The position numbers and the translations under genes were made by a program. This document shows positions 11,068 through 60,700 of a DNA stretch of 64,000 nucleotides, in pieces. This DNA is from Dehalococcoidia bacterium (GTDB lineage Bacteria; Chloroflexota; Dehalococcoidia; Lucifugimonadales; UBA1123), in contig JAGWBK010000005.1 of assembly GCA_021295915.1 (NCBI GenBank), positions 23,251 to 87,250 on the forward strand, written 5' to 3'. The notes under the pieces were generated by a model that was given only the letters and a program-made list of their open reading frames with translations, made no database searches and had not been told where the DNA came from. Within the stretch, counting starts at the first letter, position 1. The number at the start of each line of letters is the position of its first letter.

Positions 11068-11078
11068 CGGTGGACCAA

Positions 11079-12050
11079 CTAACCTGCTGCGCCGACCCGG
11101 GCCCCGCCGCCCGGAACAGCCGTCTGCTCGAGAATCTGCTCGACGATCTCCTCGCTGCCGACGCCCCTCATTCGGGCTCCTGCTGAAACGATCATGCGAT
11201 GACTGAGCATTGGCGCCGCCAGCTCCTTCACGTCATCAGGAAGCACGTAGTCTCTGCCACGTATGAGGGAGACTGCCTGACCGCCTCTGAATAGCGCCAA
11301 GGATGCCCTTGGCGATGCGCCCAGCGCGATATCTGGATGAGTCCTGGTCGCCTCAACCAGGTTGACTATGTACTGCTTAACGAGGTCGTCGACGTAAATC
11401 TCACGAATCTTCCTCTGAAGGTTTATGATCTCGTCCGCATCTGCGACCGATCTCAGGGTATCGATCGGGTGTGCAGATTGCTGCCTTTCCACGATCTCCA
11501 ACTCTTCCTCAATCGTCGGATAGCCAAGGCGGATAATCAGCAGAAAACGGTCCAACTGGGCCTCGGGAAGCGGGAAAGTACCTTCGTATTCGACCGGGTT
11601 CTGAGTCGCCATTACCATGAATGGACTAGGCAGCCTGTGTGTGATCCCCTCAACGGTGACCTGCCGCTCATCCATCGCTTCCAGCATCGCTGACTGCGTC
11701 TTGGGAGTTGCCCTGTTGACCTCGTCTGCGAGCACGAGCTGAGAAATGATCGGACCAGCGCGGAACTCGAACTCGCCGCTTTGCTGATTGTATATGGACA
11801 CTCCGGTAACGTCTGTCGGCAGCAGGTCGGGTGTGAACTGAATTCGCTTGAACGTGCAGCCCACCGAACGGGCGACGCTGCGAGCCAGCATCGTCTTGCC
11901 AACTCCCGGAACGTCTTCGATAAGCGCGTGTCCCTGGCACATTAGTGCCACAACTCCGAGTTCGACCGCCTCGCTCTTGCCGACAATGACGCGCTCTACG
12001 TTATCAATTATCCGCTGAGCCAGGTCTCGCTCTCTATCGAATTCCTGCAA
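11079..12050 (-). CDS. MoxR-family AAA+ ATPase
   Basis: 323-aa ORF with Walker A ([14 protein letters not shown]), Walker B ([20 protein letters not shown]) and the MoxR-typical [22 protein letters not shown] block. Confidence 0.93.
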
Positions 12051-13841: not shown

Positions 13842-13844
13842 CCG

Positions 13845-14282
13845 TTGGTCGCTAAACTAACTCTCAAGCTCAAGAACGACCGAGAAGAGCTGGAACGCAT
13901 CGTCACTGCTGTTGAGGAATTCGCTGCGCAGGATGAGTGGCCGGAAGACCTGCTCTTCAAGATCAACTTGGTTCTGGAAGAGATTGGCCTGAACATCATC
14001 GACTATGCGTTCGAGAGTGGTAGTCACGAGTTTGAAATCAACCTGACGTCAGATGCAGAGGCGATTACCATCGAGGCTATCGATAGTGGACGACCTTTTG
14101 ATCCGCTTAGCGAGACCCCCTTGCCGGATCTTGACGCGCCACTGGACTGCCGCCCCGTTGGTGGCCTGGGAGTCTACCTGGTACGTACACTGATGGACCA
14201 ATCTGACTATCAGAGAGTTGACGGCAAGAACTGCCTCACTGTGGTCAAGTACAGAACCGAGACCCCGACTTGTCCTGAATGA
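13845..14282 (+). CDS. Anti-sigma regulatory factor-type serine kinase (RsbW/SpoIIAB-like, HATPase_c_2)
   Basis: 145-aa ORF with a TTG start 3 nt after the preceding stop. It has an N-box-like EEIGLNIIDYA, then DSGRPFDP and GGLGVYLV glycine boxes. Confidence 0.75.
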   Translation: MVAKLTLKLKNDREELERIVTAVEEFAAQDEWPEDLLFKINLVLEEIGLNIIDYAFESGSHEFEINLTSDAEAITIEAIDSGRPFDPLSETPLPDLDAPLDCRPVGGLGVYLVRTLMDQSDYQRVDGKNCLTVVKYRTETPTCPE

Positions 14283-23377: not shown

Positions 23378-24460
23378 TTATGCCGGGGTCGGCAGCCTGG
23401 GAACTACCTCCTTGACCAGGAGCTCCATGGAGCGCACCCAGCTATCGTATGGCTGCCATTCGTGGCCCATCGCAAGCAGTACGCCGAAACCTCCCACGTC
23501 GTCGTAGAGCGTGCCCAATTTCTCAGTCACTTCGTCTGGGCTTCCAACGACGAACACATTGTCTATGAGGTATTCTGCGTCGACGTCCGAGTCAGGCATG
23601 TCAGGATCGACCTTGAACAGGTCCGTCATCCCCAATTTAGGCATGAGCTTCAGGAAGTACTGCTCGAAGTCGCGCCTGAGCACACCGTTCAATGCCTCCT
23701 CACGGGCTTGTTCGGACGTCTCGGCCACGTAGATCTCTCTCGCGATCCGCCAGTCTGCCCGGTTAGGAGTCTGCCCCGTGTTTTCGGCCCCCTTTTCAAC
23801 CGCGTCCCAGTGGGTACTGAGAATTCGCGACGGCACGAGGTTGATGCTCATGGGAATCCATCCCCGTTCGCCAGCCAGTATCAGCGTATCCGAGTTGGGT
23901 GACACGCCGGCGACTCCGATAGGAGGGTGAGGCTTCTGGTAGGGAGTAACGTGAAAACGTAGACCGAAGTCATCCACAGGTTCCGGGATGGTGAACTTCC
24001 AGAACTCGTTCTCATAGGTGCCGGGCTTTGGGTCATTCCAGATTTCCAGGATTAAGTCGATGGAGTCGCGCGTCATCCTCCTGTGCCCATCACCGCGAGG
24101 GTCGAAACCGAACACCTCGAAGTCACCAGGGAATCCACCGGACCCGACTCCCCACTGGAACCGCCCCTTGGCCATGTGGTCTAGCTGGGCAATCCGGTGT
24201 GCAATCATGAACGGGTTGTGGTTGGGCATACAGGTCACGCCGGTCCCGAGCTTGATGTTACTCGTGCGCGCCAGCGCATTGGCGATGAACATGTCAGGGG
24301 CCGGGATGTTCTCCCACACTGTCGTGAAGTGCTCGCCAATCCACGCCTCTGAATAGCCCAGGCTGTCGAGGACCTCGATCTGGTGGAGGTCGTCCTCAAG
24401 GGTCTGCGTGATGTCAGACCCCGGAGGGTGCAGCGGCATAGTGAAGAATCCGACCTGCAT
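23378..24460 (-). CDS. LLM-class (luciferase-like) flavin-dependent oxidoreductase
   Basis: 360-aa ORF with an LLM-type N-terminus (MQVGFFTMPLHPP ... LDSLGYSEAWIGEHF) and TIM-barrel-like periodicity. Confidence 0.85.
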   Translation of the reverse strand: MQVGFFTMPLHPPGSDITQTLEDDLHQIEVLDSLGYSEAWIGEHFTTVWENIPAPDMFIANALARTSNIKLGTGVTCMPNHNPFMIAHRIAQLDHMAKGRFQWGVGSGGFPGDFEVFGFDPRGDGHRRMTRDSIDLILEIWNDPKPGTYENEFWKFTIPEPVDDFGLRFHVTPYQKPHPPIGVAGVSPNSDTLILAGERGWIPMSINLVPSRILSTHWDAVEKGAENTGQTPNRADWRIAREIYVAETSEQAREEALNGVLRRDFEQYFLKLMPKLGMTDLFKVDPDMPDSDVDAEYLIDNVFVVGSPDEVTEKLGTLYDDVGGFGVLLAMGHEWQPYDSWVRSMELLVKEVVPRLPTPA

Positions 24461-33284: not shown

Positions 33285-34487
33285 ATGAACTTCGGTCTGC
33301 TATTTGAGATGCAGCGCCCGTACGAGGGCACCGAGATCGACTGGAACACCCTGTACAAGGAGACTCTTGACCAGTGTGAGCTTGCCGACAACGTCGGCTT
33401 CGACAGGGTATGGTTCGTTGAGCACCACTTCCTGCTTGGATTCTCAGGCTCCCCGTGCCCCGAGGTGATCTTCGGCGCTCTCAGCCAGCGCACCAAAAAC
33501 ATCAGGATTGGGTTCGGAGTGTCGATACTACCTCACGCGCATCCAGTGCGGATAGCTGAGCGTGTGGCGATGGTTGACCAGCTCACCGATGGACGAGTCG
33601 AGTTTGGTACCGGCCGCTCCAACGCCTATGAGCAGATGGGCCTCGGCGTGGATCCTCGGGACACCCGCGAAATGTGGAACGAGTCCATCTCCATGCTGCC
33701 ACAGATCTGGCAGTCCGATGAGTTTGAGTGGGATGGTAAGTTCTGGAATGTGCCGTCTCGCCGCGTGCTGCCCAAGCTGGTACAGAAACCTCATCCGAAC
33801 ATGTACCTGGCCTGCACTCAGTCATCCAGCTTCGACCTGGCGGCAGAAAAGGGCATAGGCGTGCTTTCATCCGCCTCGTACGCGACGTCTGTCCTGGAGT
33901 CGCACGTCAAGACATACAAAGAGAAGATCAAGAATGCCAATTCCGTTGGCGCGTTCACGACCAACTACTGGGCTAACAACGTCCACGCCTTCTGCGGTCC
34001 TGACAACCAGGCGGCTCGTGAGCTCGCCGCGGATTCTATGAAGACCTTCTTCGGGCCTGACAAGCCGTACATTGCCGGTCGGGTCGGCGCCTACGAAGAG
34101 CTGCTGGAGGCATGGGGCGGCGTTCCCGAGCACCTTGAAGCCGACTTCGGACGCTGGCTACGTCAGTCTGATGAGGCTCACAAGCAGCAGGCCGAAGAGG
34201 TGGGAATCTCGCTGGACTCAGGGCCGGGTGCTGCACGTGCAGCCATAGCCGAGCTTGACCCGAACACGCTTGCCGACCGTGCCGTCACCATCGCCGGAGA
34301 TCCCGATAGCTGCATCCGAGCCATCCAGCAATACCAGGAGATCGGCGTCGACGAAGTCATGATGATTATCCAGACTGAGACCATTCCGCACGAGAAGGTC
34401 ATGAGCTCCATCGAACTATTCGGCAAGGAGGTCTTCCCCGTCATCCGAGAGATGGAGAAGTCCAAAGCCGTAGCAACCGCGGACTAG
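33285..34487 (+). CDS. LLM-class flavin-dependent oxidoreductase
   Basis: 400-aa ORF with the N-terminus MNFGLLFEMQRP ... FDRVWFVEHHF, typical of luciferase-like monooxygenases. Confidence 0.85.
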   Translation: MNFGLLFEMQRPYEGTEIDWNTLYKETLDQCELADNVGFDRVWFVEHHFLLGFSGSPCPEVIFGALSQRTKNIRIGFGVSILPHAHPVRIAERVAMVDQLTDGRVEFGTGRSNAYEQMGLGVDPRDTREMWNESISMLPQIWQSDEFEWDGKFWNVPSRRVLPKLVQKPHPNMYLACTQSSSFDLAAEKGIGVLSSASYATSVLESHVKTYKEKIKNANSVGAFTTNYWANNVHAFCGPDNQAARELAADSMKTFFGPDKPYIAGRVGAYEELLEAWGGVPEHLEADFGRWLRQSDEAHKQQAEEVGISLDSGPGAARAAIAELDPNTLADRAVTIAGDPDSCIRAIQQYQEIGVDEVMMIIQTETIPHEKVMSSIELFGKEVFPVIREMEKSKAVATAD

Positions 34488-34739: not shown

Positions 34740-36884
34740 ATGGACTTCTGGTCGGAGGCGCAGCTCGCCTCCATTCACAAGATGCTAAATCCTCGCTCGA
34801 TCGCCGTCGTTGGCGCGACCGAGCGACCACAGTACGGCGGCAGGTTCCTGCGTGCGGCGCTCCAGGCCGGTGACCGGGTGAGCGTATATCCGGTCAACCC
34901 CCGCTACGACGAACTACTTGGCCTGAAGTGCTACGCAAGCGTACTGGACCTGCCTGAGGCGCCAGATGCCGTCGGCATCATAGTCCCGTATCACAGGGTG
35001 ATACCCGTGCTGCGAGAGAGCGCCGAGCGCGGCGCAGGCTCTGCAATTGTCATATCCGCAGGCTTCTCAGAGCGCGGAGTGGATGACCGGCGAGAGCTCC
35101 AGGCTGAACTTGGGGATGTTGCTAAGGAGACCGGAGTCCGTATCTCCGGCCCGAACTGCCTGGGCCTCGCGAACATAAAGGACGACATCTGGGCGTGTTC
35201 ATCGTCACGACTCGAGGGCGTTGAACTCAGGAGTGGAAACGTCGGGCTCGTATGTCAGAGCGGCGCGTCGGCTTTCGGGCCGTTCATGTCGAGGGCCATC
35301 GGACGTGGCGTAGGTTACTCCTACATCGTCTCGACGGGAAACGAAGCAGACCTGGAAGCTCCGGACTTCGGCAGGTACCTGCTCGATGACGACGATACCA
35401 GCGTCATCGCCATGTTTATCGAGGGCTTCAAGGACGCTCGAAAATTCCTCGAAGTCGCCAGGCTGGCAGCAGAGCGTGGCAAGCCTATTGTGGCCGTCAA
35501 GATTGGTCGGTCCGACCTCGGAATGAGGGCCGCACGCTCGCACACCGCCGCGCTCACAGGCGTCGACGAGGTGTACGATGCCGCGTTCGAACAGTACGGT
35601 GTCATTCGCGTCCACGACTGGGACAAGCTGCTTGAGATCGCACAGCTCTTGTCAGTGGGCAAGTCGCCGGCCAATCGCGGAATCTCCCTGGTCTCACACT
35701 CAGGGGGTGTCTGCTCCCTAACCGCAGACAATCTCGGCGACGCTGGCCTCGAACTGCCCGAACTCACCGACCCTGCCAGAGATGCCATTAATAACATACT
35801 CGAGGGGTTCGGATGGGCCGCAAACCCTGCCGACATTACCGGACACGCCAGCCGTGACACGGTGCTGCCCATCATGGAGCACATGATCAGCGAGCCGGAG
35901 GTTGGAACGCTGGTCGTCGCGAGTTCAGCCTCGGACGCCCAGGCGCAGCACGTGATCGACGTTCGGGATAGACACGACGAGCTCGTGACGTTCCTGTACA
36001 CCGGCAACGAGCTGGGGGCCTCCACAGGACTAGACCGGCTGAAGGATGCGGGCGTGCCCGTGTTCCACAGTCCCGAAAACCTCGCTTCTGCGCTGAAGCA
36101 GTTCCACGACTACCATTCGTGGCGACAGTCGAGGCATGGGTCCGACTTCGGAAGCGTGGCTCCAATGGACGACACTCAGAGTGCCTTTGCCGCTCGGATC
36201 AAGTCCGGGGGAGAAACAACCCTGTCCGAGCACGAGGCCAAACAGCTCATCCAGCAATGGGATGTTACAGTCGCGACTGAGCGGGTAGCCAATTCTGAGG
36301 ACGAAGCCTTGGCTGCTGCCCGGGAGATAGGCTACCCGGTCGTGGTAAAGGTCAACTCTCCCGACATCCTGCACAAGACCGAGGCTGGAGCCCTGAGAGT
36401 AGGCCTGACCTCTGACTATGCAGTGCGAGCAGCCTATGAGGAGGTTGTGGCCAACTCCAAGTCCTACTCACCCGGTGCTCGCCTCGAAGGCGTGCTGGTG
36501 GGAGAGATGGTCCGCGATGCTGCCGAAGTCATAGTCGGCGTGACTTACGACTCTCAGCTGGGTCCAGTACTGCTATTCGGAATGGGTGGCGTTCTCGTAG
36601 AGGTAATGCGCGATGTCGCGCTGAGGGTGTGCCCAATCTCGCGCCAGGATGCCGAAGAGATGGTCGCCCAGGTACGTGGTAGTCGCCTGCTGCACGGATT
36701 CCGAGGTCAGCCAAAAGGCGATGTCGATGCGCTGGTCGATACGCTCGTGCGGGTCTCAGACCTCGCGGTCCACCTTGATGGCGTCATAGAGGAGTTGGAC
36801 ATCAACCCTCTCGCGGTGCTTCCCGAAGGCAGCGGCGTGAAGGCGTTGGATGCTCTGGTAACCCTGAAACAGGACAAGTCATGA
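34740..36884 (+). CDS. ADP-forming acyl-CoA synthetase (acetate--CoA ligase family; fused CoA-binding, ligase-CoA and ATP-grasp domains)
   Basis: 714-aa ORF with a CoA-binding N-terminus (PRSIAVVGATERP), GPNCLGL, a phosphohistidine-loop-like ARSHTAALTG, and a C-terminal ATP-grasp (EHEAKQLI ... GYPVVVKV). Confidence 0.85.
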   Translation: MDFWSEAQLASIHKMLNPRSIAVVGATERPQYGGRFLRAALQAGDRVSVYPVNPRYDELLGLKCYASVLDLPEAPDAVGIIVPYHRVIPVLRESAERGAGSAIVISAGFSERGVDDRRELQAELGDVAKETGVRISGPNCLGLANIKDDIWACSSSRLEGVELRSGNVGLVCQSGASAFGPFMSRAIGRGVGYSYIVSTGNEADLEAPDFGRYLLDDDDTSVIAMFIEGFKDARKFLEVARLAAERGKPIVAVKIGRSDLGMRAARSHTAALTGVDEVYDAAFEQYGVIRVHDWDKLLEIAQLLSVGKSPANRGISLVSHSGGVCSLTADNLGDAGLELPELTDPARDAINNILEGFGWAANPADITGHASRDTVLPIMEHMISEPEVGTLVVASSASDAQAQHVIDVRDRHDELVTFLYTGNELGASTGLDRLKDAGVPVFHSPENLASALKQFHDYHSWRQSRHGSDFGSVAPMDDTQSAFAARIKSGGETTLSEHEAKQLIQQWDVTVATERVANSEDEALAAAREIGYPVVVKVNSPDILHKTEAGALRVGLTSDYAVRAAYEEVVANSKSYSPGARLEGVLVGEMVRDAAEVIVGVTYDSQLGPVLLFGMGGVLVEVMRDVALRVCPISRQDAEEMVAQVRGSRLLHGFRGQPKGDVDALVDTLVRVSDLAVHLDGVIEELDINPLAVLPEGSGVKALDALVTLKQDKS

Positions 36885-37795
36885 CGTACACTGTCCGCCG
36901 CTCCTGGCTCATTGTGCCTGCCCACGACGATAAGGCTCTGTTTGAGGCTGCCGAGTCAGGTGCCGACGTGGTTGTTCTTGACCTGCAGGACACTGTACAC
37001 GAGAGTCGCAAGCACAACGCGCGTGCCAACGTGCCCGGCGCCATAGAAACGATGCGAGACGCCGGAGCCGAGGTCTTCGTGCGCTCCGACATCGAGTTGA
37101 TGTACGCCGACCTCGATGCGTCCGTCTGGCGCGGACTGTCGGGCGTGGTGCTGCCCGGCGTGAAGAGCGTTGAGCAGGTCCAGGAGGCCGACGAGATTCT
37201 CTCTCACTTCGAAGCTGAGCGCGGAGTGGTCAAACCTCCACCGGTCGGTCACGTTAGAGAGGCTGACGATCCACGTGGACCAGAACAAGCTCTCGAGATC
37301 CACCTTTCGCTCGATACCGGTCCAGGCAACTGGCACGCGGAGGATCTGATCCGAGCCAGCGACCGCGTCAAATCCGTCAGCCTTGGACGCGCCGACCTCG
37401 TCATGGACCTCCGTGAGGACCCTGCCGGAGATCTCCACTTGCTCCCGTATCTCATGCAGAGACTAATCATCATCGCAAACGCGACCGGAGTAGAACCTGT
37501 CGGAGCGTGGTGGCGCGCGACGTCCCGGGGGCTGGCAGCAGGTTACGGTGATACGCTCCAGGCCGCGCTGACCGGGAGACAGGCTGGTTTCCGAGGCGCA
37601 CTCTGTATGAGGGCAAACCAGGTCGAGGCGCTAAACAGGGGCTTTACCCCTTCCGGATCGGAGGTGGAGAGCCACACGGCGATGTCTTCTGATTCGGAAA
37701 TATCGTCCAATGTCATTGCATGGGCAGACGCTTGCGCAGCACGCGATCAGGCGAGAGAACTTGTGCGCGGCCAGTCACAGTCCGGCCCTGTTTAG
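36881..37795 (+). CDS. HpcH/HpaI aldolase / citrate lyase beta (CitE)-like protein, paralog 1
   Basis: 304-aa ORF with an ATGA overlap with the synthetase stop. CitE-like blocks are RRSWLIVPA ... SGADVVVLDLQDTV, VVLPGVKS, LSLDTGPG and SLGRADLVMDL. Substitutions occur at canonical acidic positions. Confidence 0.75.
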   Translation: MTYTVRRSWLIVPAHDDKALFEAAESGADVVVLDLQDTVHESRKHNARANVPGAIETMRDAGAEVFVRSDIELMYADLDASVWRGLSGVVLPGVKSVEQVQEADEILSHFEAERGVVKPPPVGHVREADDPRGPEQALEIHLSLDTGPGNWHAEDLIRASDRVKSVSLGRADLVMDLREDPAGDLHLLPYLMQRLIIIANATGVEPVGAWWRATSRGLAAGYGDTLQAALTGRQAGFRGALCMRANQVEALNRGFTPSGSEVESHTAMSSDSEISSNVIAWADACAARDQARELVRGQSQSGPV

Positions 37796-37807
37796 AGAGA
37801 ACAAGCT

Positions 37808-38752
37808 ATGACCAGAAGAGTAAGACGCTCCGGGCTGACAATGCCCATCAACAACCCTCGTTTCGTGGGGCGGTCATGGACTCGTGACTGCGACTATCTC
37901 AACTTCGATTTCGAAGACTCCGTGCCCCAATCGCAAAAGGAGCACGCCCGTACCCTGGTCCGGGACGCCATTGTGCAGGGCCAGAATGGCGCAGCCGAGA
38001 TTAATATCAGGATTAACTGCGCCTATCCCGAGGTCGACGTTCCCGCAGCCGTGTGGCCCGGAGTCACGCAGATCAACTTCCCAAAGGCGGAGACGGCCGA
38101 GCAGATCAAGAACCTCGACGAACTCATCACCAGGATGGAGAGAGTCCGGGGAATCCGGCCCGGCACCGTTCGCATTGGCGCGACAGTCGAGACCACCCTG
38201 GGAGTGGCGAACTCGTACGAGATAGCATCTGCCAGCCGCCGCATCGATTCGTTTGGGCCTGGTACAGGCTATGACATGTCGATGGACATGGGCGTCGAGA
38301 TGTTTGTGGGGTTCGATCAGTTCTTCTATAACCGCGGCGAGGGCGAGCTTGTAGCTCTTGCGCTCGGACTGGAGCGTGACGGCGGCGTATACATGCCGGA
38401 CACGACCGGCGATGTGGGAAACGCCGACCTCGCTATCAATCGGGCGCGGGCCAATAGGAAGGCAGGCCTGAGGTCAGGCGGCGGCCTCCACCCAAACGTC
38501 GTAGCCCCTCAGAACGAGGGCCTCACTCCCACAGCCGAAGAGGTCGACCACGCCCACAGGATCCTCGACTTCTTTGCAGAGCTTGATGAAGCTGGAGAGG
38601 TTGAGGGAGATCTCGACGGCCAGATCGTCGACGTCTACGAGGCTGGGCGCGCGCTTGAGCTGATCGAGTGGGCTGACCTCTGCGCTCAGCGAGACGCGGA
38701 GAAGGCCGCTGCCCGCGCGCAGACCGAGGCCACCGAGGAGTCTTCAGCATGA
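37808..38752 (+). CDS. HpcH/HpaI aldolase / CitE-like lyase, paralog 2 (canonical motifs retained)
   Basis: 314-aa ORF with RRSGLTMP ... NFDFEDSV, IRIN, INFPKAET, ATVETTLGV and FGPGTGYDMSMDMG. These match the CitE/malyl-CoA-lyase motif order. Confidence 0.8.
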   Translation: MTRRVRRSGLTMPINNPRFVGRSWTRDCDYLNFDFEDSVPQSQKEHARTLVRDAIVQGQNGAAEINIRINCAYPEVDVPAAVWPGVTQINFPKAETAEQIKNLDELITRMERVRGIRPGTVRIGATVETTLGVANSYEIASASRRIDSFGPGTGYDMSMDMGVEMFVGFDQFFYNRGEGELVALALGLERDGGVYMPDTTGDVGNADLAINRARANRKAGLRSGGGLHPNVVAPQNEGLTPTAEEVDHAHRILDFFAELDEAGEVEGDLDGQIVDVYEAGRALELIEWADLCAQRDAEKAAARAQTEATEESSA

Positions 38753-39681
38753 AGCCATTCGTCAGAAGGTCTCATCTGCTGGTCGACCTCCTCAACCGTG
38801 AATCAGTCAACTCCTCCTGGACGCACAATGCGGACGCAATCATTCTGGCGATGCCGACAGGTGCACTGGAAAGGTCTTCACTTCGCGCAAACCTGCGACA
38901 GACCGTCAACTCGGCTGCACTGGGCGGCGCAGAGGTGTTTGTTCTGACGAATAGGGACCTCGCATTTGCAGACCTGGGGGCCGCTTCCGGTCCAGGTCTG
39001 AAGGGAATCGTGTATGCGGGCGCCGAGTCAGGAACTGAGCTTGAACGGCTTGACGAGTGGCTTGACGAGTTCGAAAAGAAGAGTGGTACCCCCGAGAACA
39101 CGCTCCACATAATCGTGTTGCTCACGTCAGGCGCGGGGGTGTGGAACATCCGCGAGATAGTTCGCGCGTCAGACAGGGTAAGCTCGGTAGGAATCGATGA
39201 GCTAGCCCTGTGTAAGAGCTTGGGAATCGTGCCGACCACTGACTTTGACCCATTCGAGTACGCAAAGGGTCGGGTCATAATTGAAGCGCGCGCCTCGAGA
39301 GTCCAGCCAATTGGCATGAGTCATCCGTACGGAGTGCTCCCTGAGTTTGGCGATGAAGGTGAGATCGCTCGCCTTGCCCTCAGGTCGAAGAACCTCGGAT
39401 TCGCCGGCGCTATCTGTCCTGACCCATCCTGGGTCGATCATTGCAACAGGGCATTCGCTCCGCCCGAAGACAGGTTGGAGTTCTACCGGGAGACGAGACG
39501 ACTATTCGCTGAAGGCGTGGCGCGTGGCACCGCTGCGATTCCCTATCCCGGCACCACAATGATGATCGACGTCCCTGTAGATGAGAACGCCCGCGTCAAC
39601 TTGGAGCTCTGGGAGCGCTGTGCGGCTCGCGAGGCCGAAAAGGCGACCGCCGTTGCAGAGTCGCTGGCTCGTCTGGCCTGA
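38749..39681 (+). CDS. CitE-like protein, paralog 3 (degenerate motifs; possible non-catalytic subunit)
   Basis: 310-aa ORF with an ATGA overlap with paralog 2. Length and block order resemble CitE (RRSHLLV ..., SDRVSSVGIDELA), but the DLED, LPK and ET motifs are replaced (LAMPTG, YAGAES, LLTS). Confidence 0.6.
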   Translation: MKPFVRRSHLLVDLLNRESVNSSWTHNADAIILAMPTGALERSSLRANLRQTVNSAALGGAEVFVLTNRDLAFADLGAASGPGLKGIVYAGAESGTELERLDEWLDEFEKKSGTPENTLHIIVLLTSGAGVWNIREIVRASDRVSSVGIDELALCKSLGIVPTTDFDPFEYAKGRVIIEARASRVQPIGMSHPYGVLPEFGDEGEIARLALRSKNLGFAGAICPDPSWVDHCNRAFAPPEDRLEFYRETRRLFAEGVARGTAAIPYPGTTMMIDVPVDENARVNLELWERCAAREAEKATAVAESLARLA

Positions 39682-39713: not shown

Positions 39714-40508
39714 TCAGTCGCTCACCAGGTGCCGCAGCACCATGCCCGAGAATTCCCCCGGCTTCTCCACGTGTGGCAGGTGACCGCACCCGGGAACGAC
39801 TTCAAGAACCGATCCGGCAATTGCCTCGTGAATTCGATTACCTGCGCTAGGCGGGATGATCCTGTCCTCGGCTCCCCATACAACTGTTGTCGGTACGTCG
39901 ACCCTCTGTAGGAGCCATTCAAGGCTACGGTCATACATATAGGGCTTCCAGCACAGTCTCGTCGTCATCTCCCGACCGCGAATCTTAAGCTCCCGCTCTT
40001 CAGTGCTCAGCTCGCGTTCGAATAGATCCGAGTACTCAGGCACACTTGGTGCATCGTGGAACGAGAGCCGAGTCGTCTCGTCCTCTCCCAACAGGAAGAC
40101 GTCGGCGATCTCGCCAGTGTCCGGCCTGACACCCGCGGCATCCACCAGGACCAGGCCGCCCAGGCTGCCCGGACTCATGGTCGCCATCTCAGCAGCAATC
40201 CATCCGCCAAGGAAGTGCCCGACGAGTGTCACGGCGTCGAGCTTCAGCTCCTGGATCATCCACAGGTAGAAGCGCGCCATGTCCGAGACCGACTCGAGGA
40301 ACTTGGGCCGCTCCGAACGCCCGAAGCCCGTATGCGTCGGCGCGTACACTGTTGCGGACTTCGAGACTTCTTCCATCCACGGGAGCCAGCCCAGGTTGCC
40401 ATCGATGCTGTGCAGAAAGAGCAGGGGAGGACCGTCACCACCTTTCAGGAGATGGATCTTAGCTCCGCCGACTTCAATGAACTCCTCGACAAAGGATGTC
40501 GTGGTCAT
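39714..40508 (-). CDS. Alpha/beta-fold hydrolase
   Basis: HSIDG oxyanion region, nucleophile elbow GHFLGG and a C-terminal GCGHLPHVE. I chose the ATG at 40508 (MTTTSFVEEF), which forms an ATGA overlap with the upstream LLM stop. The longer ORF to 40640 would overlap that gene by 130 nt. Confidence 0.85.
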   Translation of the reverse strand: MTTTSFVEEFIEVGGAKIHLLKGGDGPPLLFLHSIDGNLGWLPWMEEVSKSATVYAPTHTGFGRSERPKFLESVSDMARFYLWMIQELKLDAVTLVGHFLGGWIAAEMATMSPGSLGGLVLVDAAGVRPDTGEIADVFLLGEDETTRLSFHDAPSVPEYSDLFERELSTEERELKIRGREMTTRLCWKPYMYDRSLEWLLQRVDVPTTVVWGAEDRIIPPSAGNRIHEAIAGSVLEVVPGCGHLPHVEKPGEFSGMVLRHLVSD

Positions 40509-41707
40509 GGCGCCACCTCGAACGGCCCCGGAAGCTCCAGCTCTTCGCCGATCTCTCTCAGCGCTGGCAGCACGTCCGAGTCCATCAGTTCCAGGCACCT
40601 CATGGAGTCTTCGTGGCTGATACTGCCATCGTTGGTCCACACGGCGAGGATTCCCGGCCGGATGACCGACAGCACCTCTCGAAGCTTTCTGATTACTGTG
40701 TCGGGGTTGCCTACTACTATCCGGTTCATTCCGACAACCCTGTCGTAGCCTGCGGCGTCGACACCCCCCACCAGCCGGTCGGGACGGAGGTTGATCTGCG
40801 AACTGCGCCGCCTACCCTCGATAGATGTATAGCCAGGAGGGTTCATGTATTCCGGCGGCATGGGGACGCGCCCGACACCGGCATTGCCAGACAGGAACCC
40901 TTTGCCCACCTCGTAGGCCTTCTCGTCTGTGTCCTGCACGTGTACTCGGAACAGATATCCGAAGTTCTGCGGACCTGGTTCGTACCCAACCTCGTTCGCA
41001 GCCTCGGCGTAGATAGCCTTTGCGTCGCCAACGACCTCTGGGTCCGCCTCCAGGAATACGTAAGGGTAGTGGTGCTGCGCCGCCCAGATCATCGTCTCAG
41101 GACTCGCGCTGCCGGGCACCCACACCGGAGGGTGCGGGTCCTGGAGAGGCCGTACGAACGGGTTAACCACCCTGTACTCGAAGTGACGTCCCTCCCACCT
41201 GAACGGGCCGGGAGTTGTCCAAGTCTTGATTATCAGATCGTGCGCCTCCTGGAAACGCTCGCGGTTGTGGACAGGGTTCGTGTTCGTGGCCCACGACTCG
41301 ACTCCGGTGCCGCGCACGAATCCTGATACGAGTCTGCCCCGTGAGATCAGGTCTATCTCCGCTAGCTCCTCGGCCATCCTGACTGGATTGTCCGAGATAG
41401 GCAGCGGGTTTCCGAGAAGCACGATCTTCGCGTTCTTCGTCGCGCGTGCAAGGATCGCCGCCTCCAGGTTCATCGCCGCTCCCATGCACGTCGGCGTGTT
41501 GTGATGCTCGTTGAGCATCAGCCCGTCGAACCCCATCTCCTCGCAGTACTCGTACTCATCGAGGTAATAGTTGTACATGTCCGCTGCGGTCTCTGGATCG
41601 AAGTGGGAGTTTGGGAACGTAAGCCTCACCGCGCTGCGGTAGCTGTTCCTCACGTCCTCCTCGGTGTAGTGGAAGTAGGCTCGCTCTGTGAAGCGCATCA
41701 GAAACAT
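40505..41707 (-). CDS. LLM-class flavin-dependent oxidoreductase
   Basis: Luciferase-like pattern (EEMGFDGLMLNEHH ...). I chose the ATG at 41707 (MFLMRF), which is preceded by GGGGG. The ORF track starts at a GTG at 41746. Confidence 0.85.
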   Translation of the reverse strand: MFLMRFTERAYFHYTEEDVRNSYRSAVRLTFPNSHFDPETAADMYNYYLDEYEYCEEMGFDGLMLNEHHNTPTCMGAAMNLEAAILARATKNAKIVLLGNPLPISDNPVRMAEELAEIDLISRGRLVSGFVRGTGVESWATNTNPVHNRERFQEAHDLIIKTWTTPGPFRWEGRHFEYRVVNPFVRPLQDPHPPVWVPGSASPETMIWAAQHHYPYVFLEADPEVVGDAKAIYAEAANEVGYEPGPQNFGYLFRVHVQDTDEKAYEVGKGFLSGNAGVGRVPMPPEYMNPPGYTSIEGRRRSSQINLRPDRLVGGVDAAGYDRVVGMNRIVVGNPDTVIRKLREVLSVIRPGILAVWTNDGSISHEDSMRCLELMDSDVLPALREIGEELELPGPFEVAP

Positions 41708-41829
41708 GGTCTGCACCCCCGTGTGTCCGGCTGATACTATTCGCACGTCCGTCTACGGTCAAGCTGACGTTGACGATGTCCCTCCCCACAAATAAGCTGG
41801 GGCGAACCACCCGCAGAAAGGACTTACCC

Positions 41830-51164: not shown

Positions 51165-51351
51165 GGATGTCTCCTTGTGTTGCCTGGGCGGTCTCTCCCG
51201 CCCTTTATGCCACTAGTTGTATCGAACATGCGGTACCCTTGCCAACCTGTTTCGATGGTACAGGGTCATTCAGACCTGCTGGTGCGACTGAATTACCTGT
51301 CTGCTATCATGTGCCCGCAATTTGCCACGATGTGAACAGGGAGGCCTAGCT

Positions 51352-52371
51352 TTGAAAGTCGGATCAAGATTGGATGGAAGGACACCACAGCAGATTGCGG
51401 CGTCGGCTCGTCGTGCGGAAAGGCTGGGCTTTGATGCCTACTCCTCCTCGGAGACAAACCATAACCCGTTTCTTCCGCTGTCCATAGCCGCGGAACACAC
51501 GGAACGCATCAACCTGCGCACTTCCATAGCACTGGCTTTTGCAAGAAGTCCCATGGATGTCGCTTACATCGGCTGGGACCTCCAGGCAATGTCCAACGGC
51601 AGGTTCACACTAGGTCTGGGCAGCCAGGTCCGCGGACACATCGTCCGACGCTTCGGCATGAACTGGTCCGCACCGGCTCCCAGGATGAGGGAGTACATTC
51701 AGGCGCTTCGACATATCTGGAATGCCTGGCAGACACAGGAGCCGGTCAAGTTCCACGGCGATCACTTCGACTTCAACCTCATGCCCCCGTTCTTCAATCC
51801 TGGTCCCATCGAAAAGCCGGACGTGAAGGTGTTTGTGTCCGCGGTGAATCCATACATGCTCCGTGTGGCAGGGGAGGTCTGCGACGGGGTGCTGCTCCAC
51901 GGTTTCTGCACTCCCAAGTACACCCGAGAGGTGATCATTCCAAACCTGGAAATCGGCGCCAAAAGAGCGGGCAGATCCCTGGACGATTTCGAGATCAACG
52001 CCGGCGGGTTCATCATTACCGGAGCCACGGAAGAAGAAGTGGAGTCCAAGAAGGCTGGAGTGAAAGGGCAGATTTCATTCTACGCTTCGACCAGGAGCTA
52101 TGAGTCGGTTATGAGCACGCACGGCTGGGAAGACACCGCCGCGAGACTGTACCGGATGTCCGTCGACAACAAGTGGGGAGAGATGCCCAACCAGGTTACT
52201 GACGACATGCTCGAGACCTTCGCTGTGATCGGCACCCACGATGAGATCGTGGACAAGCTCAAGGAGGCCCATGGCGACTACGCCACGTCTATCAGCTTCG
52301 ACATCCCGACACCCACGGGCGAGGACGAAGAGATGATGGCAGGTATGGTTGCCGAGCTGCAGTCGGAGTAA
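51352..52371 (+). CDS. LLM-class, probably F420-dependent, oxidoreductase
   Basis: Luciferase-like family pattern (AERLGFDAYSSSETNHNPF ... LGLGSQV). I chose the TTG at 51352 (MKVGSRLDG), 8 nt after GGGAGG. The ORF track starts at a TTG at 51322. Confidence 0.8.
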   Translation: MKVGSRLDGRTPQQIAASARRAERLGFDAYSSSETNHNPFLPLSIAAEHTERINLRTSIALAFARSPMDVAYIGWDLQAMSNGRFTLGLGSQVRGHIVRRFGMNWSAPAPRMREYIQALRHIWNAWQTQEPVKFHGDHFDFNLMPPFFNPGPIEKPDVKVFVSAVNPYMLRVAGEVCDGVLLHGFCTPKYTREVIIPNLEIGAKRAGRSLDDFEINAGGFIITGATEEEVESKKAGVKGQISFYASTRSYESVMSTHGWEDTAARLYRMSVDNKWGEMPNQVTDDMLETFAVIGTHDEIVDKLKEAHGDYATSISFDIPTPTGEDEEMMAGMVAELQSE

Positions 52372-55460: not shown

Positions 55461-56765
55461 TCAGGACCTCAGGCCTTCCAGTGTCTCCCAGAAAGATGGG
55501 TAGGAGACATCCGCGGCCTCTGAATCACCAATGTGAGTCTCACCGCCGGCAACGAGTCCTGCTACCGCCATGGACATGGCTATTCGATGGTCTCCGTGGC
55601 TGACGACTTCCGCGCCTGTGAGCTTAGAGCCACCCTCGATGATCATGCCGTCGTCGATCTCTCGTATCGAGGCTCCAAGGGCGTGTAGACCCTCGGCGGT
55701 CGCCGAGATCCGATCCGATTCCTTGACCCTTAGTTCCGCGGCGTCCCTTATGACAGTTTGGCCCGAGGCCTGCGAGGCAGCCATTGCCAGCACCGGAAGC
55801 TCATCGACTACGCGCGGGATGATATCTCCACCAATTTCGATGCCCTTCAGGTCGCTTGATTCGACGACAAGGTCTGCAGCCGGCTCATTGCCGTCCTCGC
55901 GAACATTCTCCATCCGAATGTTCGCGCCCATCTCGGCCAGGACATCGAGCACGCCGGTGCGGGACGGGTTGACCCCGACCCCTTTGACGGTAATCCGGGC
56001 GTTAGGGTGTGCTGCTCCAGCGACAAGCCAGAAGGCGGCCCCGCTGATGTCAGAGGGCACCTGGATGTTGATCGACTTCAGTTCAGACGGTCTTACGGTC
56101 ACCCTGAGTCCGTCCTTTTCGATGTCGGCCCCCATGGCGGCCATCATCCTCTCGGTATGGTCACGGGATTCGGCGGGCTGGATCACAGTGGTCTCGCCCT
56201 CTGCGTACAGACCCGCAATCAGAATGCACGACTTGAGCTGAGCGCTCGCGACGGGCATATCGTATTCGATTCCTTGAATTTCACCACCGCTGAAGGCTAG
56301 GGGCGCAAGCGAGCCGCCATTTCGGCCCATCACTTCGGCTCCCATCATCGAAAGTGGTGTCAGGATTCTCTTCATGGGTCGACGTCTCAGGGACGAGTCT
56401 CCAGTGATGACGCTGAAGAACGATTGTGCCGCGAGCAGACCAGAGACCAGTCGCATCGTAGTGCCGCTGTTCCCGGAAAAGAGGACATCGTTCGGCTCGA
56501 CCAGGCCGGACTTGCCCCTGCCCGAGATGTTGAAGTACTCCCTGTCGGCAGTAGCTCCATCCTCTGCCGCGCGTTCGATCTCCACGCCCAGGCCCCTCAG
56601 GCAGCCAAGCATCGAGGTCCGGTCGTCGCCAACGCAGAAGTTGGAGACCACAGCGTCGCCGTCAGAAATGGCATTCAACAGCGCCGCCCGGTGCGAGATG
56701 GACTTATCGCCGGGAGGAACGACCGTTCCTTCGAGGCGGGGACTGTGCTCGACTGTTCGGTTCAC
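55461..56765 (-). CDS. aroA: 3-phosphoshikimate 1-carboxyvinyltransferase (EPSP synthase)
   Basis: 434-aa ORF with PGDKSISHRA, GNSGTTMRL and DHRIAMS motifs. Confidence 0.95.
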   Translation of the reverse strand: MNRTVEHSPRLEGTVVPPGDKSISHRAALLNAISDGDAVVSNFCVGDDRTSMLGCLRGLGVEIERAAEDGATADREYFNISGRGKSGLVEPNDVLFSGNSGTTMRLVSGLLAAQSFFSVITGDSSLRRRPMKRILTPLSMMGAEVMGRNGGSLAPLAFSGGEIQGIEYDMPVASAQLKSCILIAGLYAEGETTVIQPAESRDHTERMMAAMGADIEKDGLRVTVRPSELKSINIQVPSDISGAAFWLVAGAAHPNARITVKGVGVNPSRTGVLDVLAEMGANIRMENVREDGNEPAADLVVESSDLKGIEIGGDIIPRVVDELPVLAMAASQASGQTVIRDAAELRVKESDRISATAEGLHALGASIREIDDGMIIEGGSKLTGAEVVSHGDHRIAMSMAVAGLVAGGETHIGDSEAADVSYPSFWETLEGLRS

Positions 56766-56770
56766 TGACC

Positions 56771-57769
56771 CTATCTCCTGGATCTGTACGTGGTGTTTTG
56801 CTCTTCTTCCTTCTGTCGAAGCGCGCCAAGCCTTTGGGCGAGTTTCTCACCCAGCATCGCGCTCGCTATGGATTCACCTGCGCTGGGTATCCGTACGCCT
56901 TCCTGTGGGACGACAGCGTCCGCCTCCCACCTCGCCCTGTGTTCCCAGGCGCTTACAAACCGCTCGATTAGCTCTTCGCTCCCGTCCTTGATCTCGTTTC
57001 TGAACTCGTACAACTCGAGGATTAACTGGTCTATCCAGTGTGCCAGCGCCTCCGGATCTGCCAGGGACATAGCCTCATTGTCCAGTGGATCGTTGGAGGC
57101 ATGCCTCCCAAACACCTCGAACTGAGACTCCGCAAGCATGTGCATCTCACGCCAACCGTCACTACCCGCGGTCGAGTTGACGAACGCTGACGACATAATG
57201 ACCGGAAGGTGGTGCATTGCCGCGGCATATGAATCATGCTCTGCGGGATCGAGGAACACCGGCTTGGCGCCGAGTGCCTCGATCAGTCCCACGACGGTCC
57301 TGATCGACTGCTCGTCCGAAGTCTCTGAGGGAGTGACAGTGTACCTTGCGCCGTTGAAGATCGACGGATCGGCCTCTTCGAGAGAATATGGAGTCGCCTT
57401 CAACAGTGGATGACCACCAACGAAGCTAGCGTCTGATGGCAGGTACTCGCTGGCCCACTTAATCACAGGGCCCTTGACGCTGACCGTATCGGTCACGACC
57501 GCACCAGGCTCAATTGATGGTCCGACCGCTTCCATCAGCTCATGTAGCTCGCCGAGCGGTGCGTCGAGTATCACGAGTTGGGCGGTCTCCACCGCTTGCC
57601 GAAGGCCGCCAATAGTCTTGTGAGCTGCATCCATCTTTGATACAGCAGACATGACAGCGCGGTCTCCTGACGTAATCACGACCTCGGTGTTGCTGAGTTT
57701 GCGCTTCATAAGGGACTGCCCGATTGAAACTCCAATCGGTCCGACTCCCACAATTGTTATTCGTTCCAA
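56771..57769 (-). CDS. tyrA: Prephenate (arogenate) dehydrogenase
   Basis: Rossmann N-terminus ITIVGVGPIGVSIG, DTVSVKG and GGHPL motifs. It is adjacent to aroA. Confidence 0.85.
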   Translation of the reverse strand: MERITIVGVGPIGVSIGQSLMKRKLSNTEVVITSGDRAVMSAVSKMDAAHKTIGGLRQAVETAQLVILDAPLGELHELMEAVGPSIEPGAVVTDTVSVKGPVIKWASEYLPSDASFVGGHPLLKATPYSLEEADPSIFNGARYTVTPSETSDEQSIRTVVGLIEALGAKPVFLDPAEHDSYAAAMHHLPVIMSSAFVNSTAGSDGWREMHMLAESQFEVFGRHASNDPLDNEAMSLADPEALAHWIDQLILELYEFRNEIKDGSEELIERFVSAWEHRARWEADAVVPQEGVRIPSAGESIASAMLGEKLAQRLGALRQKEEEQNTTYRSRR

Positions 57770-57819
57770 GATGACACCTCAACGTTCCGGTGTTAGCGTC
57801 CATCGTCGCTGATAGACTA

Positions 57820-58521
57820 TCACAGAAGGCTCGAACCTAGGATTATGTCTCCGAAGAGGTTTACTACTGGCCATATCACTGTTGAGAAGACGGGAATGCC
57901 GAAAACGATCCCGGCCAGAATCAGGATCAACAGAATTCCCGGACCGTACCTTTCGGTCTTGGCGTAGGCACTAGCCGCATCCTTCGGTAGCACCCCCAGC
58001 GCCACCTTGAATCCATCTAGCGGAGCGATGGGGAGCAGGTTGAATACGGCGAGTACCAGGTTCCATCTCACTAGAGATACGAGGGCGAACTCAATCAGGG
58101 CTCTGCCTTCGAACCTGCCGACAGTAAACTCCGGACCTGCCAGCCCCGCAACGTCAGCCCTAACTGCGATACCGAACACGGCGGCAGCTATGATGTTCGA
58201 TAGCGGCCCGGCCAGTGATACCATCGCCAGCCCAATTCGCTGCCCGATTCGCAGGAAGGTCGGACTGACCGGCACGGGCTTGCCCCAGCCGAAACCGGCT
58301 AGAAGGATAAGCACGCTGCCCAACGGGTCCAGGTGCCGTATAGGATTGAGCGAGAGTCGCCCCAGGTTGGCGGCTGTGCGGTCGCCGAGTGACGTCGCCA
58401 CATACGCATGGCTGAACTCGTGGACGGTAATCCCTATTACGAGCGAAGCGCACAGTGTAACGACCGTTATCAGACCCAGGAGCGGGTCTCTCTCGAACAG
58501 ATCGATCGACGAGATTAGCAA
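57820..58521 (-). CDS. M50-family site-2 protease-like membrane metalloprotease
   Basis: 233-aa polytopic ORF with the HExxH motif HEFSHAY and the second metal motif NLLPIAPLDG. Confidence 0.85.
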   Translation of the reverse strand: MLISSIDLFERDPLLGLITVVTLCASLVIGITVHEFSHAYVATSLGDRTAANLGRLSLNPIRHLDPLGSVLILLAGFGWGKPVPVSPTFLRIGQRIGLAMVSLAGPLSNIIAAAVFGIAVRADVAGLAGPEFTVGRFEGRALIEFALVSLVRWNLVLAVFNLLPIAPLDGFKVALGVLPKDAASAYAKTERYGPGILLILILAGIVFGIPVFSTVIWPVVNLFGDIILGSSLL

Positions 58522-58534
58522 CGTTTATCGAAAT

Positions 58535-58570
58535 CAAAAAAACGGAGCGAGTTGACCGCTCCGTTTTTCT
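58535..58570 (-). terminator. Rho-independent terminator (bidirectional geometry) after the IscA-like gene
   Basis: An 8-bp stem, ACGGAGCG (58542-58549) / CGCTCCGT (58557-58564), has a 7-nt loop and is flanked by A7 on one side and T5 on the other. Confidence 0.7.
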
Positions 58571-58596
58571 TTACTTGGTCTTAGTGGTATTTGGCC

Positions 58597-59016
58597 TTAG
58601 TGACCGCCGCATCCGCATCCGCCGCCACCTCCACCGCCGCAGCCACATCCGCCGCCGCCGCCGCCGCAAGCGCATCCGCCGCCGCCGCCACCGCAGCCGC
58701 ATCCGGCCTGGAAGTTCGGGTTACTGATCACGAACCCGCTCCTCATCAGCCCTTCCATATAGTCTATGGTCGAGCCGTCGAGCAGGGGTGCGCTGTCTGC
58801 GTCAACCAGCACCTGGATTTCGTGGGTGTCGATAACGAAGTCATTCTCAGCGGCCTCAGCTTCGACGCTGAGCATGTACTGAACGCCGCCTTGAGGACCG
58901 GGCATCACCATTACGCGGAGCAGCCCGTCGCCCTCACCCTCCTCCTGGAGGATATCCTGGAACTTCTGGGCGGCCAGTTCGCTGACCTCTAGTAGCTGAG
59001 TTGTCGCCACGTGCAT
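58597..59016 (-). CDS. HesB/IscA-family iron-sulfur cluster insertion-like protein with a Gly/Cys-repeat C-terminal tail
   Basis: The IscA fold pattern is LLRVMVMPG ... IDYMEGLMRSGFVISNPN followed by CGCG. The ATG at 59016 is preceded by GGAGG. The tail reads GCGCGGGGGGCACGGGGGGCGCGGGGGGGCGCGGH. Confidence 0.8.
   Translation of the reverse strand: MHVATTQLLEVSELAAQKFQDILQEEGEGDGLLRVMVMPGPQGGVQYMLSVEAEAAENDFVIDTHEIQVLVDADSAPLLDGSTIDYMEGLMRSGFVISNPNFQAGCGCGGGGGGCACGGGGGGCGCGGGGGGGCGCGGH
58600..58704 (-). repeat. GC-rich 27-nt-period codon repeat encoding (C-x-C-G6)n
   Basis: About 3.5 imperfect tandem units of GGC/GGT/GGA/TGC codons within the 3' end of the IscA-like CDS. Confidence 0.8.
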
Positions 59017-59099
59017 TACCTCCGCAATCCTAGCTCTTACGAGGAGTCTCCAATTGGCCGCAATGCTAGCATGGGCCCCCAAACCAGTCAAGGAAATCG

Positions 59100-59129
59100 T
59101 TGACTCCGGAATTTCTACTCCGCTATAAT
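59100..59129 (+). promoter_or_regulatory. Near-consensus sigma-70 promoter driving the 5S-like RNA
   Basis: TTGACT (59100-59105), an 18-nt spacer, then TATAAT (59124-59129). The predicted start site is a few nt before the first 5S-like base at 59141. Confidence 0.6.
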
Positions 59130-59140
59130 TTCGCCAACTA

Positions 59141-59237
59141 TCCTTGGTGGTTTGAGCGAGGCGGACCCACCCGTTCCCATCCCGAACACGGAAGTGAAAC
59201 GCTTCAGCGCCGACGATACTAGGCCACTGCCAGGGTG
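59141..59237 (+). rRNA. rrf: 5S rRNA-like gene, about 97 nt, apparently lacking helix IV/loop D
   Basis: The first 80 nt align without gaps to bacterial 5S (..CCCACCCGUUCCCAUCCCGAACACGGAAGUGAAACGC..AGCGCCGA.GAUACU). The 3' end, AGGCCACUGCCAGGG, matches the 5S 3' strand and pairs with the 5' CCUUGGUGG to form helix I. The roughly 24 nt normally between these segments are absent. Confidence 0.6.
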
Positions 59238-59459
59238 TTCCTCAAAAAAGGTCGGAGTTGACCGAAGACCTTGCGAAAATGGCAGTTCATACGTCGCTTT
59301 GCGCTGCCTGTTGCCCTCCAAAAATGGGTTTTCAGCCCATTCCCGCCATGATACAATCACGTCACTATTACTAAGAGGGGGAAAGTCGGGGCGGCGACTT
59401 CTACCAGATACTCACTGTCCAAGGGCCCTGCTCAGGGCGTTTTGTGCGATGGGCGCGGC

Positions 59460-59488
59460 TTTACCAGTCGAAAATCATTACATATAAT
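59460..59488 (+). promoter_or_regulatory. Candidate sigma-70 promoter for rpsA
   Basis: TTTACC (59460-59465), a 17-nt spacer, then TATAAT (59483-59488), 37 nt upstream of the rpsA ATG. Confidence 0.4.
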
Positions 59489-59524: not shown

Positions 59525-60700
59525 ATGACTACTGAACAAGAGCGAGAGCAAGTGGCCCCTGAAGAAGAAGATATGGGCCAGCTGCTCGATCAGATGATGG
59601 GGGAGATCAAGAATGTCCGCCGGGGCGACGTCGTTGAGGGCGTCGTGATGCGGGCAGACACCTCCGACGGCCTGTTTGTCAACATCGGACAGAAGGCCGA
59701 AGCCCATGTTCCCGCGAATGAGATGCGCACCATTGATACCACCGATATCGAAGGACTGGTGGGAGGGTCCATAATCGCAATGGTTGTTCGCCCTGAATCG
59801 GGCGACAATCCCGCGATACTGTCCGTGGATCGAGCTATTGGCGAGCAGGGCTGGCGCTACCTCGAGAAGGCGATGGATGCCGGAGAGGTTATCGAAGGCA
59901 GTATCGCCGGTTTCAACAGGGGTGGCTCAATCGTCGAAGTCGAAGGAGTCCAGGGCTTCGTACCCATGTCTCAGTTGGTTTCGGTACCCCGTGAGCGCTT
60001 CCGTATCTACCAGGAAGGCGGCGATGGCCTCTCCGAAGGAGAGACCGAGACCATTCAGGAGGCCCAGAACGCCGAAATCGGGCGCCAGATTCAGATGAAG
60101 GTTCTTGAAGTGAACCGGAGCCGGAATCGGGCCATCTTCTCCGAGCGGCAGGCCGTTCAGGAGTCGCGTGATGCTCGCAAGGCCAAGCTGATAGAAGAGC
60201 TTGAAGAAGGTCAGACCAGAAACGGTACCGTAACTGGCATCAGCAGCTTCGGCGCATTCGTCGACATTGGCGGCGCTGATGGGTTGATTCATATCTCAGA
60301 ACTCTCGTGGAGCATGGTCAACTCCCCCGAAGAAGTGGTGAGCGTCGGCCAGAAGGTCGACGTATACGTACTGCGGGTAGACGCCGAAAACATGAAGATC
60401 GCTCTCAGCCTCAGGCGGCTCCAGCCCGAGCCGTGGGAGACCATCCACGAGCGTCACAACATCGGCGATGTCGTAAATGCAACTGTGACCAAGTTGACCA
60501 ACTTCGGAGCCTTCGCGAGAGTTGAGGACTCCATTGAAGGTCTGATTCACATTTCCGAACTCTCAGCAAGGATGATTAATCACCCTCGGGAAGTTGTGAG
60601 GGAAGGTGAACAGGTAGAAGTCAAAATTCTGCGGATCGAGCCAGAACGTAGAAGGCTTGGACTCAGCCTCAAGCAGGCGAGTGAAGAGCGGTTCTTCTAA
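59525..60700 (+). CDS. rpsA: 30S ribosomal protein S1 (four S1 domains)
   Basis: 391-aa ORF with repeated S1-domain signatures (GDVVEGVV, G.IAGFNRGG, GTVTGISSFGAFVDIGGADGLIHISEL, ATVTKLTNFGAFARVEDSIEGLIHISEL). Confidence 0.93.
   Translation: MTTEQEREQVAPEEEDMGQLLDQMMGEIKNVRRGDVVEGVVMRADTSDGLFVNIGQKAEAHVPANEMRTIDTTDIEGLVGGSIIAMVVRPESGDNPAILSVDRAIGEQGWRYLEKAMDAGEVIEGSIAGFNRGGSIVEVEGVQGFVPMSQLVSVPRERFRIYQEGGDGLSEGETETIQEAQNAEIGRQIQMKVLEVNRSRNRAIFSERQAVQESRDARKAKLIEELEEGQTRNGTVTGISSFGAFVDIGGADGLIHISELSWSMVNSPEEVVSVGQKVDVYVLRVDAENMKIALSLRRLQPEPWETIHERHNIGDVVNATVTKLTNFGAFARVEDSIEGLIHISELSARMINHPREVVREGEQVEVKILRIEPERRRLGLSLKQASEERFF

Follow-up and report, generated by a model that had tools for sequence, protein, structure and literature searches.

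The short 5S rRNA gene described here is a known kind of gene, a bacterial 5S in the unlinked arrangement that is normal for Dehalococcoidia, and it lies in a 64,000-nt stretch of DNA that was analyzed whole (hereafter, the window). By comparison with related loci, the deletion that shortens it is private to one sequence record, and the gap most likely reflects faulty assembly or a very recent mutation instead of marking a new type of minimal 5S. We favor the first of these: with a probability of roughly 0.55, the deletion is not a property of the living population and would be a fault of consensus calling or assembly within a conserved rRNA region, a cause that we infer.

We scanned the whole 64-kb window with Rfam cmscan and found a match to the 5S rRNA family (RF00001) of 68.0 bits (E = 3.4e-12), which clears the curated gathering score of 38 bits. 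As the sole Rfam match above threshold, it leaves the window with no second 5S and with no other rRNA match anywhere in the 64 kb, beside the 5S or elsewhere; no tRNA gene is present within the 64 kb either. Hence, the 5S-like gene without an adjacent 16S or 23S, which the sequence-only reading had proposed, was recovered by the covariance model. The element had been given a length of 97 nt; the 5S itself is real, and the model sets its length at 93 nt.

The RF00001 model aligned at both ends (model positions 1-120), with 33 internal consensus positions replaced by 6 nt, so the absence of helix IV and loop D, seen by eye before, is confirmed by the cmscan alignment. In this alignment the gene keeps helices I-III, loop C and a helix V of 3-4 bp. 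Helix I has 9 pairs joining the 5' and 3' ends, just as had been claimed, both in the covariance-model alignment and in the minimum free energy (MFE) fold. The same two analyses show an intact β domain (helices II-III and loop C, where uL5 and uL18 bind) with the loop C motif CCCAUCCCGAAC.

The window 5S is without helix IV and loop D and has lost most of the 3' strand of loop E; in the relatives, helix IV is present and capped by loop D. The MFE fold of the deleted allele has a 3-bp helix V around a 10-nt hairpin loop, and the 5' strand of loop E (GACGAUA) is left inside that loop. Beyond its 3-bp helix V, the full-length allele folds into a symmetric 7x7 internal loop (GACGAUA/GAAAAUA, loop E), followed by an 8-bp helix IV that a GCAA loop D closes. 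Stepanov and Fox (2021, PMC7812874) take the U77-A99 and A78-G98 interactions of loop E to be universal 5S landmarks; this landmark is lost in the window 5S, where GAAAA (corresponding to E. coli 98-102) is deleted, and is intact in all relatives. Compared with a canonical RF00001 5S of the unlinked Dehalococcoidia type, the window copy shares helices I-III, loop C, helix V, its own promoter and the stand-alone position, and the record differs by the 24 missing nt (helix IV, loop D and the loop E 3' strand). Positions of the features are collected in Table 1.

Table 1. Features of the 5S rRNA locus, in window coordinates, and example metagenome loci
Feature	Position or locus	Strand	Details and evidence
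Fe-S cluster biosynthesis (IscA-like) gene, divergent upstream neighbor	58597..59091	-	Pfam PF01521, E = 4e-13
Minus-strand promoter-like site TTGACT-17-TAGCAT	59063..59091	-	Consensus match only
Sigma-70-type 5S promoter	59100..59129	+	-35 TTGACT 59100-59105, 18-nt spacer, -10 TATAAT 59124-59129
5S rRNA gene, 93-nt deleted allele	59143..59235	+	RF00001, MFE fold, identity to 117-nt relatives
Deletion junction	59219..59220	+	GACGATAC before, TAGGCC after; pairwise/multiple alignments, full-length fold
Second window-private change, A (T in L001-L004 and L175)	59245	+	Alignments
rpsA (ribosomal protein S1)	59525..60700	+	Pfam PF00575 x4 (four S1 domains)
Metagenome loci with 5S-rpsA linkage, examples	L055, L066, L086, L148		

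The sequence-only reading had given the gene its own TTGACT-N18-TATAAT promoter about 12 nt upstream. We found the promoter to be present and to match 11 of 12 consensus positions, and the distance from the -10 hexamer to the 5' end of the 5S to be 13 nt. A 1.5-kb region holds 5 promoter-like sites, compared with 0.7 expected from shuffles. A multiple alignment shows TTGAC (-35) and TATAMT (-10) unchanged in 27/27 relatives, with a spacer sequence between them that drifts freely. Hence, this site has the pattern of a working promoter.

We searched species-representative genomes with rpsA, which identified the source as an uncultured bacterium of the Dehalococcoidia (Chloroflexota), and found 24 Dehalococcoidia loci (L004-L027, rpsA identity 83-99%), every one of which carries a full-length 5S directly upstream of rpsA (24/24). 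The best rpsA match (L004) was OY762210.1, a complete 3.7-Mb MAG chromosome with about 95% DNA identity to the window. Eleven related loci were scanned with Rfam; their 5S genes score 81-86 bits, and no 16S or 23S lies within 6 kb of the 5S in any of these 11 genomes. On this comparison, the orphan position and the separate promoter are the normal state of the clade's 5S and no peculiarity of the window copy. The clade-wide stand-alone 5S fits the rRNA unlinking published for Dehalococcoidia, which form a coherent clade with unlinked rRNA genes (bioRxiv 10.1101/705046). Across the relatives, down to an rpsA identity of 83%, the 24 nt that the window lacks hardly vary, with only Y/R changes at two positions. 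The related chromosomes measure 3.2-4.3 Mb, which argues against genome reduction in the lineage. Among the Pfam matches in the 64-kb window there is no L25 gene.

In 24/24 Dehalococcoidia genomes the 5S, with its own promoter, stands 150-400 nt upstream of rpsA on the same strand. The same order occurs in 29 of the 84 metagenome contigs that have enough downstream sequence, at rpsA identities down to about 37%. The linkage between a stand-alone 5S and the S1 gene is old and conserved. We know of no earlier description of it, and a 5S with its own promoter just upstream of rpsA, in Dehalococcoidia and in lineages related to them, may interest those who study the break-up of rRNA operons or the regulation of ribosomal genes. 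One long-read MAG (isolate b4c8b7c9-...) has the 5S-rpsA pair on two contigs (L015 on contig_8 and L016 on contig_3) with identical 5S genes, and one of these copies is at a contig end; the duplication is probably a haplotig or an unresolved duplication of that assembly.

We used the exact rpsA protein to find contigs in public assemblies and obtained three from three different samples (L001, L002 and L003), with DNA identities to the window of 99.5%, 98.9% and 98.9%, respectively. At this locus each of the three has a 5S of the full 117 nt, which scores 83.8 bits (vs 68 in the window) and aligns with the model through helix IV and loop D. Contigs of the identical strain were also sought via the Fe-S, M50-like and ClpC proteins, and only one of those found was both new and spanned the deletion site. 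This fourth independent contig (L175), found via the Fe-S protein, has 2 mismatches to the window in 2.2 kb (99.9% identical), and its 5S is intact. Hence, an intact 5S is present in four independent metagenome assemblies, from four samples, of the same strain or species (98.9-99.9% identical). A further contig from an independent assembly (L174, Logan SRR35761419_185304) is 100% identical to window positions 56615-59170 over 2556 nt; it stops at 59170, which is 28 nt inside the 5S and short of the deletion. The conserved 5S gene tangles assembly graphs, and L174 breaks inside it.

We compared the window with its relatives in pairwise and multiple alignments and found that exactly 24 nt (TGCACTTGCAAGGGTGTGGGAAAA) are missing after 59219, which makes the earlier estimate of roughly 24 nt accurate. 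They take in all of loop D (GCAA) and of the 3' strand of helix IV, 7 of the 8 nt on the 5' side of that helix, and GAAAA from the loop E 3' strand. The deletion is asymmetric: on the 5' side it spares loop E completely and one base of helix IV, the first, and on the 3' side it takes 5 of the 7 nt of loop E. Precise excision of a hairpin is ruled out by this asymmetry. Replication slippage between direct repeats is ruled out as an obvious mechanism, given that the microhomology at the breakpoints amounts to 1 nt (T).

Outside the deletion, the 93 nt of the window 5S match the 117-nt genes of L001-L004 and L175 at every base, the promoter carries no substitution, and there is no compensating change anywhere in the window 5S gene. 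The sole other window-private change in 2.2 kb is the T-to-A change at 59245, which lies 10 nt past the 3' end of the 5S and 26 nt from the deletion and creates an A6 run. With two private changes inside 27 nt, the consensus may be unreliable here, and their clustering is only weakly significant, arising by chance at a rate of roughly 5%.

We searched a metagenome contig collection for the exact deletion junction, with degenerate flanks, and found 0 matches. The same flanks searched with a free gap of 0-30 nt matched at least 120 metagenome contigs, and it is only together with these intact matches that the 0 junction matches are informative. The insert between the flanks is 24 or 25 nt in all of the at least 120 matches, with none shorter among the matches listed; the inserts among the matches listed comprise at least 63 distinct sequences. 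We then aligned 72 distinct γ-domain sequences from all loci collected and found that five pairs of helix IV show 4-7 pair types each, with 70-71 of the 72 sequences staying paired around the GNRA loop. By this covariation, the helix IV/loop D element is under strong structural selection in every relative examined. For close 5S relatives in metagenomes, rpsA is downstream in 6 of 8 contigs, and no other context is seen in any of the 8.

The locus is best read as an ordinary stand-alone 5S gene. In this clade the 5S stands apart from the 23S, between a divergent IscA-like gene and rpsA; its own conserved sigma-70-type promoter would give a transcript with a leader of only a few nt and a canonical 117-nt 5S, in which loop E is 7x7 and the 8-bp helix IV ends in a GNRA loop D. 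A consensus or assembly error would have arisen where the reads of many related Chloroflexota have identical 5S flanks and different helix IV sequences. An artefact is favored because the deleted segment looks essential and is invariant in relatives, because nothing else has changed in the 5S gene or its promoter, and because the private change at 59245 is only 26 nt from the deletion. It is favored, too, by the 1-nt microhomology, which does not indicate simple slippage, and by the break of the L174 assembly in the same gene, where dozens of helix IV variants between identical flanks can confuse a consensus. A fixed loss would also be costly, since the lost part binds L25 and docks on the 23S helices H39, H42 and H89 (PMC4267664, PMC3614586): L25 binds the γ domain, which consists of loop E and helix IV (PMC4267664), and the 'toe' of helix IV and loop D touches 23S helices 39, 42 and 89 in the region between the peptidyl-transferase center and the GTPase-associated center (PMC3614586).

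An artefact is made less convincing by the rest of the window, which looks well assembled. The window genes give full-length Pfam domain matches without frameshifts, and all other indels against the relatives either fall in spacers or keep the frame (21+3 nt and 3 nt in the Fe-S gene); on these same grounds, a generally error-prone assembly is not supported. An artefact is further weakened by the weak significance of the clustering with 59245 and by the gap itself, since neither short-read nor HiFi assemblers typically make a clean 24-nt gap, and assembly on a de Bruijn graph requires reads that cross the junction. The case resembles metagenome rRNA consensus and assembly errors in that the deletion is record-private, the flanks are common to many co-occurring taxa and a second private change is nearby. 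Unlike in these, the rest of the window contig has no sign of indel-type errors. The record is best taken as a quality-control flag, in that one sequence has a defective copy of an essential, otherwise invariant RNA gene, and annotators and surveys of 5S or other rRNA should not report the window 5S as a minimal 5S.

The 24 nt may alternatively have been lost in life, through a very recent mutation, strain-level or confined to a minority variant, that cripples or inactivates the window 5S. We regard this as possible and short of probable, and that standing is shared jointly by its two forms, a fresh pseudogene with a backup 5S elsewhere and a deleterious allele caught in a low-coverage or long-read assembly. 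The otherwise clean assembly, with no frameshifts and only in-frame or spacer indels, speaks for a real event, as does a clean 24-nt gap, atypical of assembler error. With 0 substitutions in the remaining 93 nt and the promoter, such an event would be too recent for decay, and with L175 differing by 2 mismatches in 2.2 kb, it would postdate a very shallow split. However, purifying and structural selection act strongly on the segment wherever else it occurs, and the deleted allele is in no other assembly. A backup gene is not suggested by the close metagenome relatives, none of the 8 having a second 5S context (6 have rpsA downstream), nor by the window, which is without a second copy; and the breakpoints have no direct repeat to explain slippage. 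The sequence-only reading had considered a decaying pseudogene, and decay is what we did not find, the 93 nt and the promoter being identical to those of functional orthologues. If the window 5S is a pseudogene, then it would, by this identity, have to be brand new.

The sequence-only reading had also raised a genuinely minimised 5S and a 5S-derived decoy keeping only the L5/L18 domain, and it had named a normal-length 5S in relatives at this locus as an outcome that would count against it. The comparison with orthologous loci gave that outcome: the 5S is of normal length in the 4 near-identical assemblies, in the 24 species genomes and in at least 120 metagenome contigs, which leaves both the minimised gene and the decoy without support. 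At the level of the lineage, minimisation or a decoy RNA is ruled out by the intact 5S of the 4 near-identical assemblies and the 24 species genomes.

It is accordingly very improbable that the 93-nt RNA has evolved as a functional molecule, whether as a minimised ribosomal 5S or as a decoy or regulator with only the uL5/uL18-binding β domain, made from the strong promoter. In its favor, the promoter, helix I and the β domain are intact and helix I can still close, and there are precedents in CPR 5S with a short or missing helix IV/loop D (PMC9297842) and in a plastid 5S without loop E and helix IV (PMC4267664). However, no relative shares the state, even at 99.9% identity, which leaves no time for selection to shape a function; the gene sits at the clade's only observed 5S locus and is not an extra copy; the 3.2-4.3 Mb chromosomes of the relatives are not those of a reduced-genome lineage; and the gene has no compensating change.

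The precedents also differ from the window in kind. In CPR (Parcubacteria) and parasitic bacteria, the 5S is 105-110 nt long ('5Gap1'), with helix IV/loop D shortened or lost and the loop E region retained (Tsurumaki et al. 2022, PMC9297842). The same region is affected there as in the window, helix IV and loop D, but their loss is lineage-wide, keeps loop E and occurs in small genomes, whereas that of the window is private to one record, has removed the loop E partners, leaves 93 nt and falls in a 3-4 Mb lineage. In the Bigelowiella plastid 5S the γ domain is shortened, and both loop E and helix IV are absent (Valach et al. 2014, PMC4267664). Like the window copy, this plastid 5S has lost loop E and helix IV together and kept the α and β domains, but it is organellar, fast-evolving and fixed, whereas the window gene is bacterial and its closest relatives are all intact. 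Hence, to call a 5S without helix IV/loop D highly unusual, as had been done, was something of an overstatement, given the loss or shortening known in CPR and parasitic bacteria (PMC9297842); the description stands to the extent that loss of the loop E 3' strand is more extreme. A 93-nt 5S in a free-living-type genome of 3-4 Mb would be extreme.

It is similarly hard to credit that the deletion is real and affects the sole 5S of the strain, so that its ribosomes carry a 93-nt 5S without helix IV, loop D and the loop E 3' strand. If this were true, it would be the shortest and most γ-domain-depleted 5S known in a free-living bacterium with a normal-sized genome, and a natural experiment on the dispensability of the L25 site and of the H39/H42/H89 clamp. 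It would also be a surprising test of how much of the γ domain a bacterial ribosome could do without.

The genes beside the 5S are those that had been named from the letters, an IscA-like gene on the opposite strand (found as Fe-S_biosyn, -) and rpsA (a four-domain S1 gene, +). Within the 164-aa IscA-like ORF, PF01521 covers residues 34-134. As called, this ORF begins with TTG at 59091, and a GGAGG followed by ATG/GTG occurs at about 59010-59023; the ORF is probably over-extended, with its true start predicted near 59010-59016, after the GGAGG. The minus-strand TTGACT-17-TAGCAT site is inside the 5' extension of this ORF, back to back with the 5S promoter, and it probably serves the Fe-S gene. 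On the other side, rpsA has its own promoter-like site (59460-59488), a terminator-like hairpin (59425-59438) lies upstream of that site, and a ClpC-type ATPase gene comes after rpsA.

The spacer from the 5S to the rpsA promoter (59279-59438) is far more variable than its surroundings, with about 14 of the window's 37 mismatches to L002 in these 160 nt. More distant relatives have a T-run straight after helix I (CCAGGGTTTTTTTG), which is terminator-like; the subclade of the window is without that T-run. A 111-aa ORF (59152-59487, +) that overlaps both the 5S gene and the spacer is almost certainly spurious, and automatic annotation could mis-call it as a gene.

Elsewhere, the window encodes four paralogues of luciferase-like (flavin/F420-dependent) monooxygenases (23378-24460, 33285-34487, 40505-41746 and 51322-52371). 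Three tandem HpcH/HpaI aldolase/citrate-lyase-like genes (36881-39681) adjoin an acyl-CoA synthetase (ATP-grasp/CoA-binding) gene (34740-36884), and a CoA-transferase III, an enoyl-CoA hydratase and an enolase-superfamily protein are also encoded. We take this catabolic repertoire to be reminiscent of SAR202-type Chloroflexota. An operon for a MoxR-type AAA ATPase, a DUF58 protein and a transglutaminase-like/DUF4129 membrane protein (7289-12050, -) is adjoined by a partner-switching-like pair (12675-14282, +), a response-regulator-SpoIIE phosphatase and an HATPase_c_2 kinase; both the operon and the pair are ordinary.
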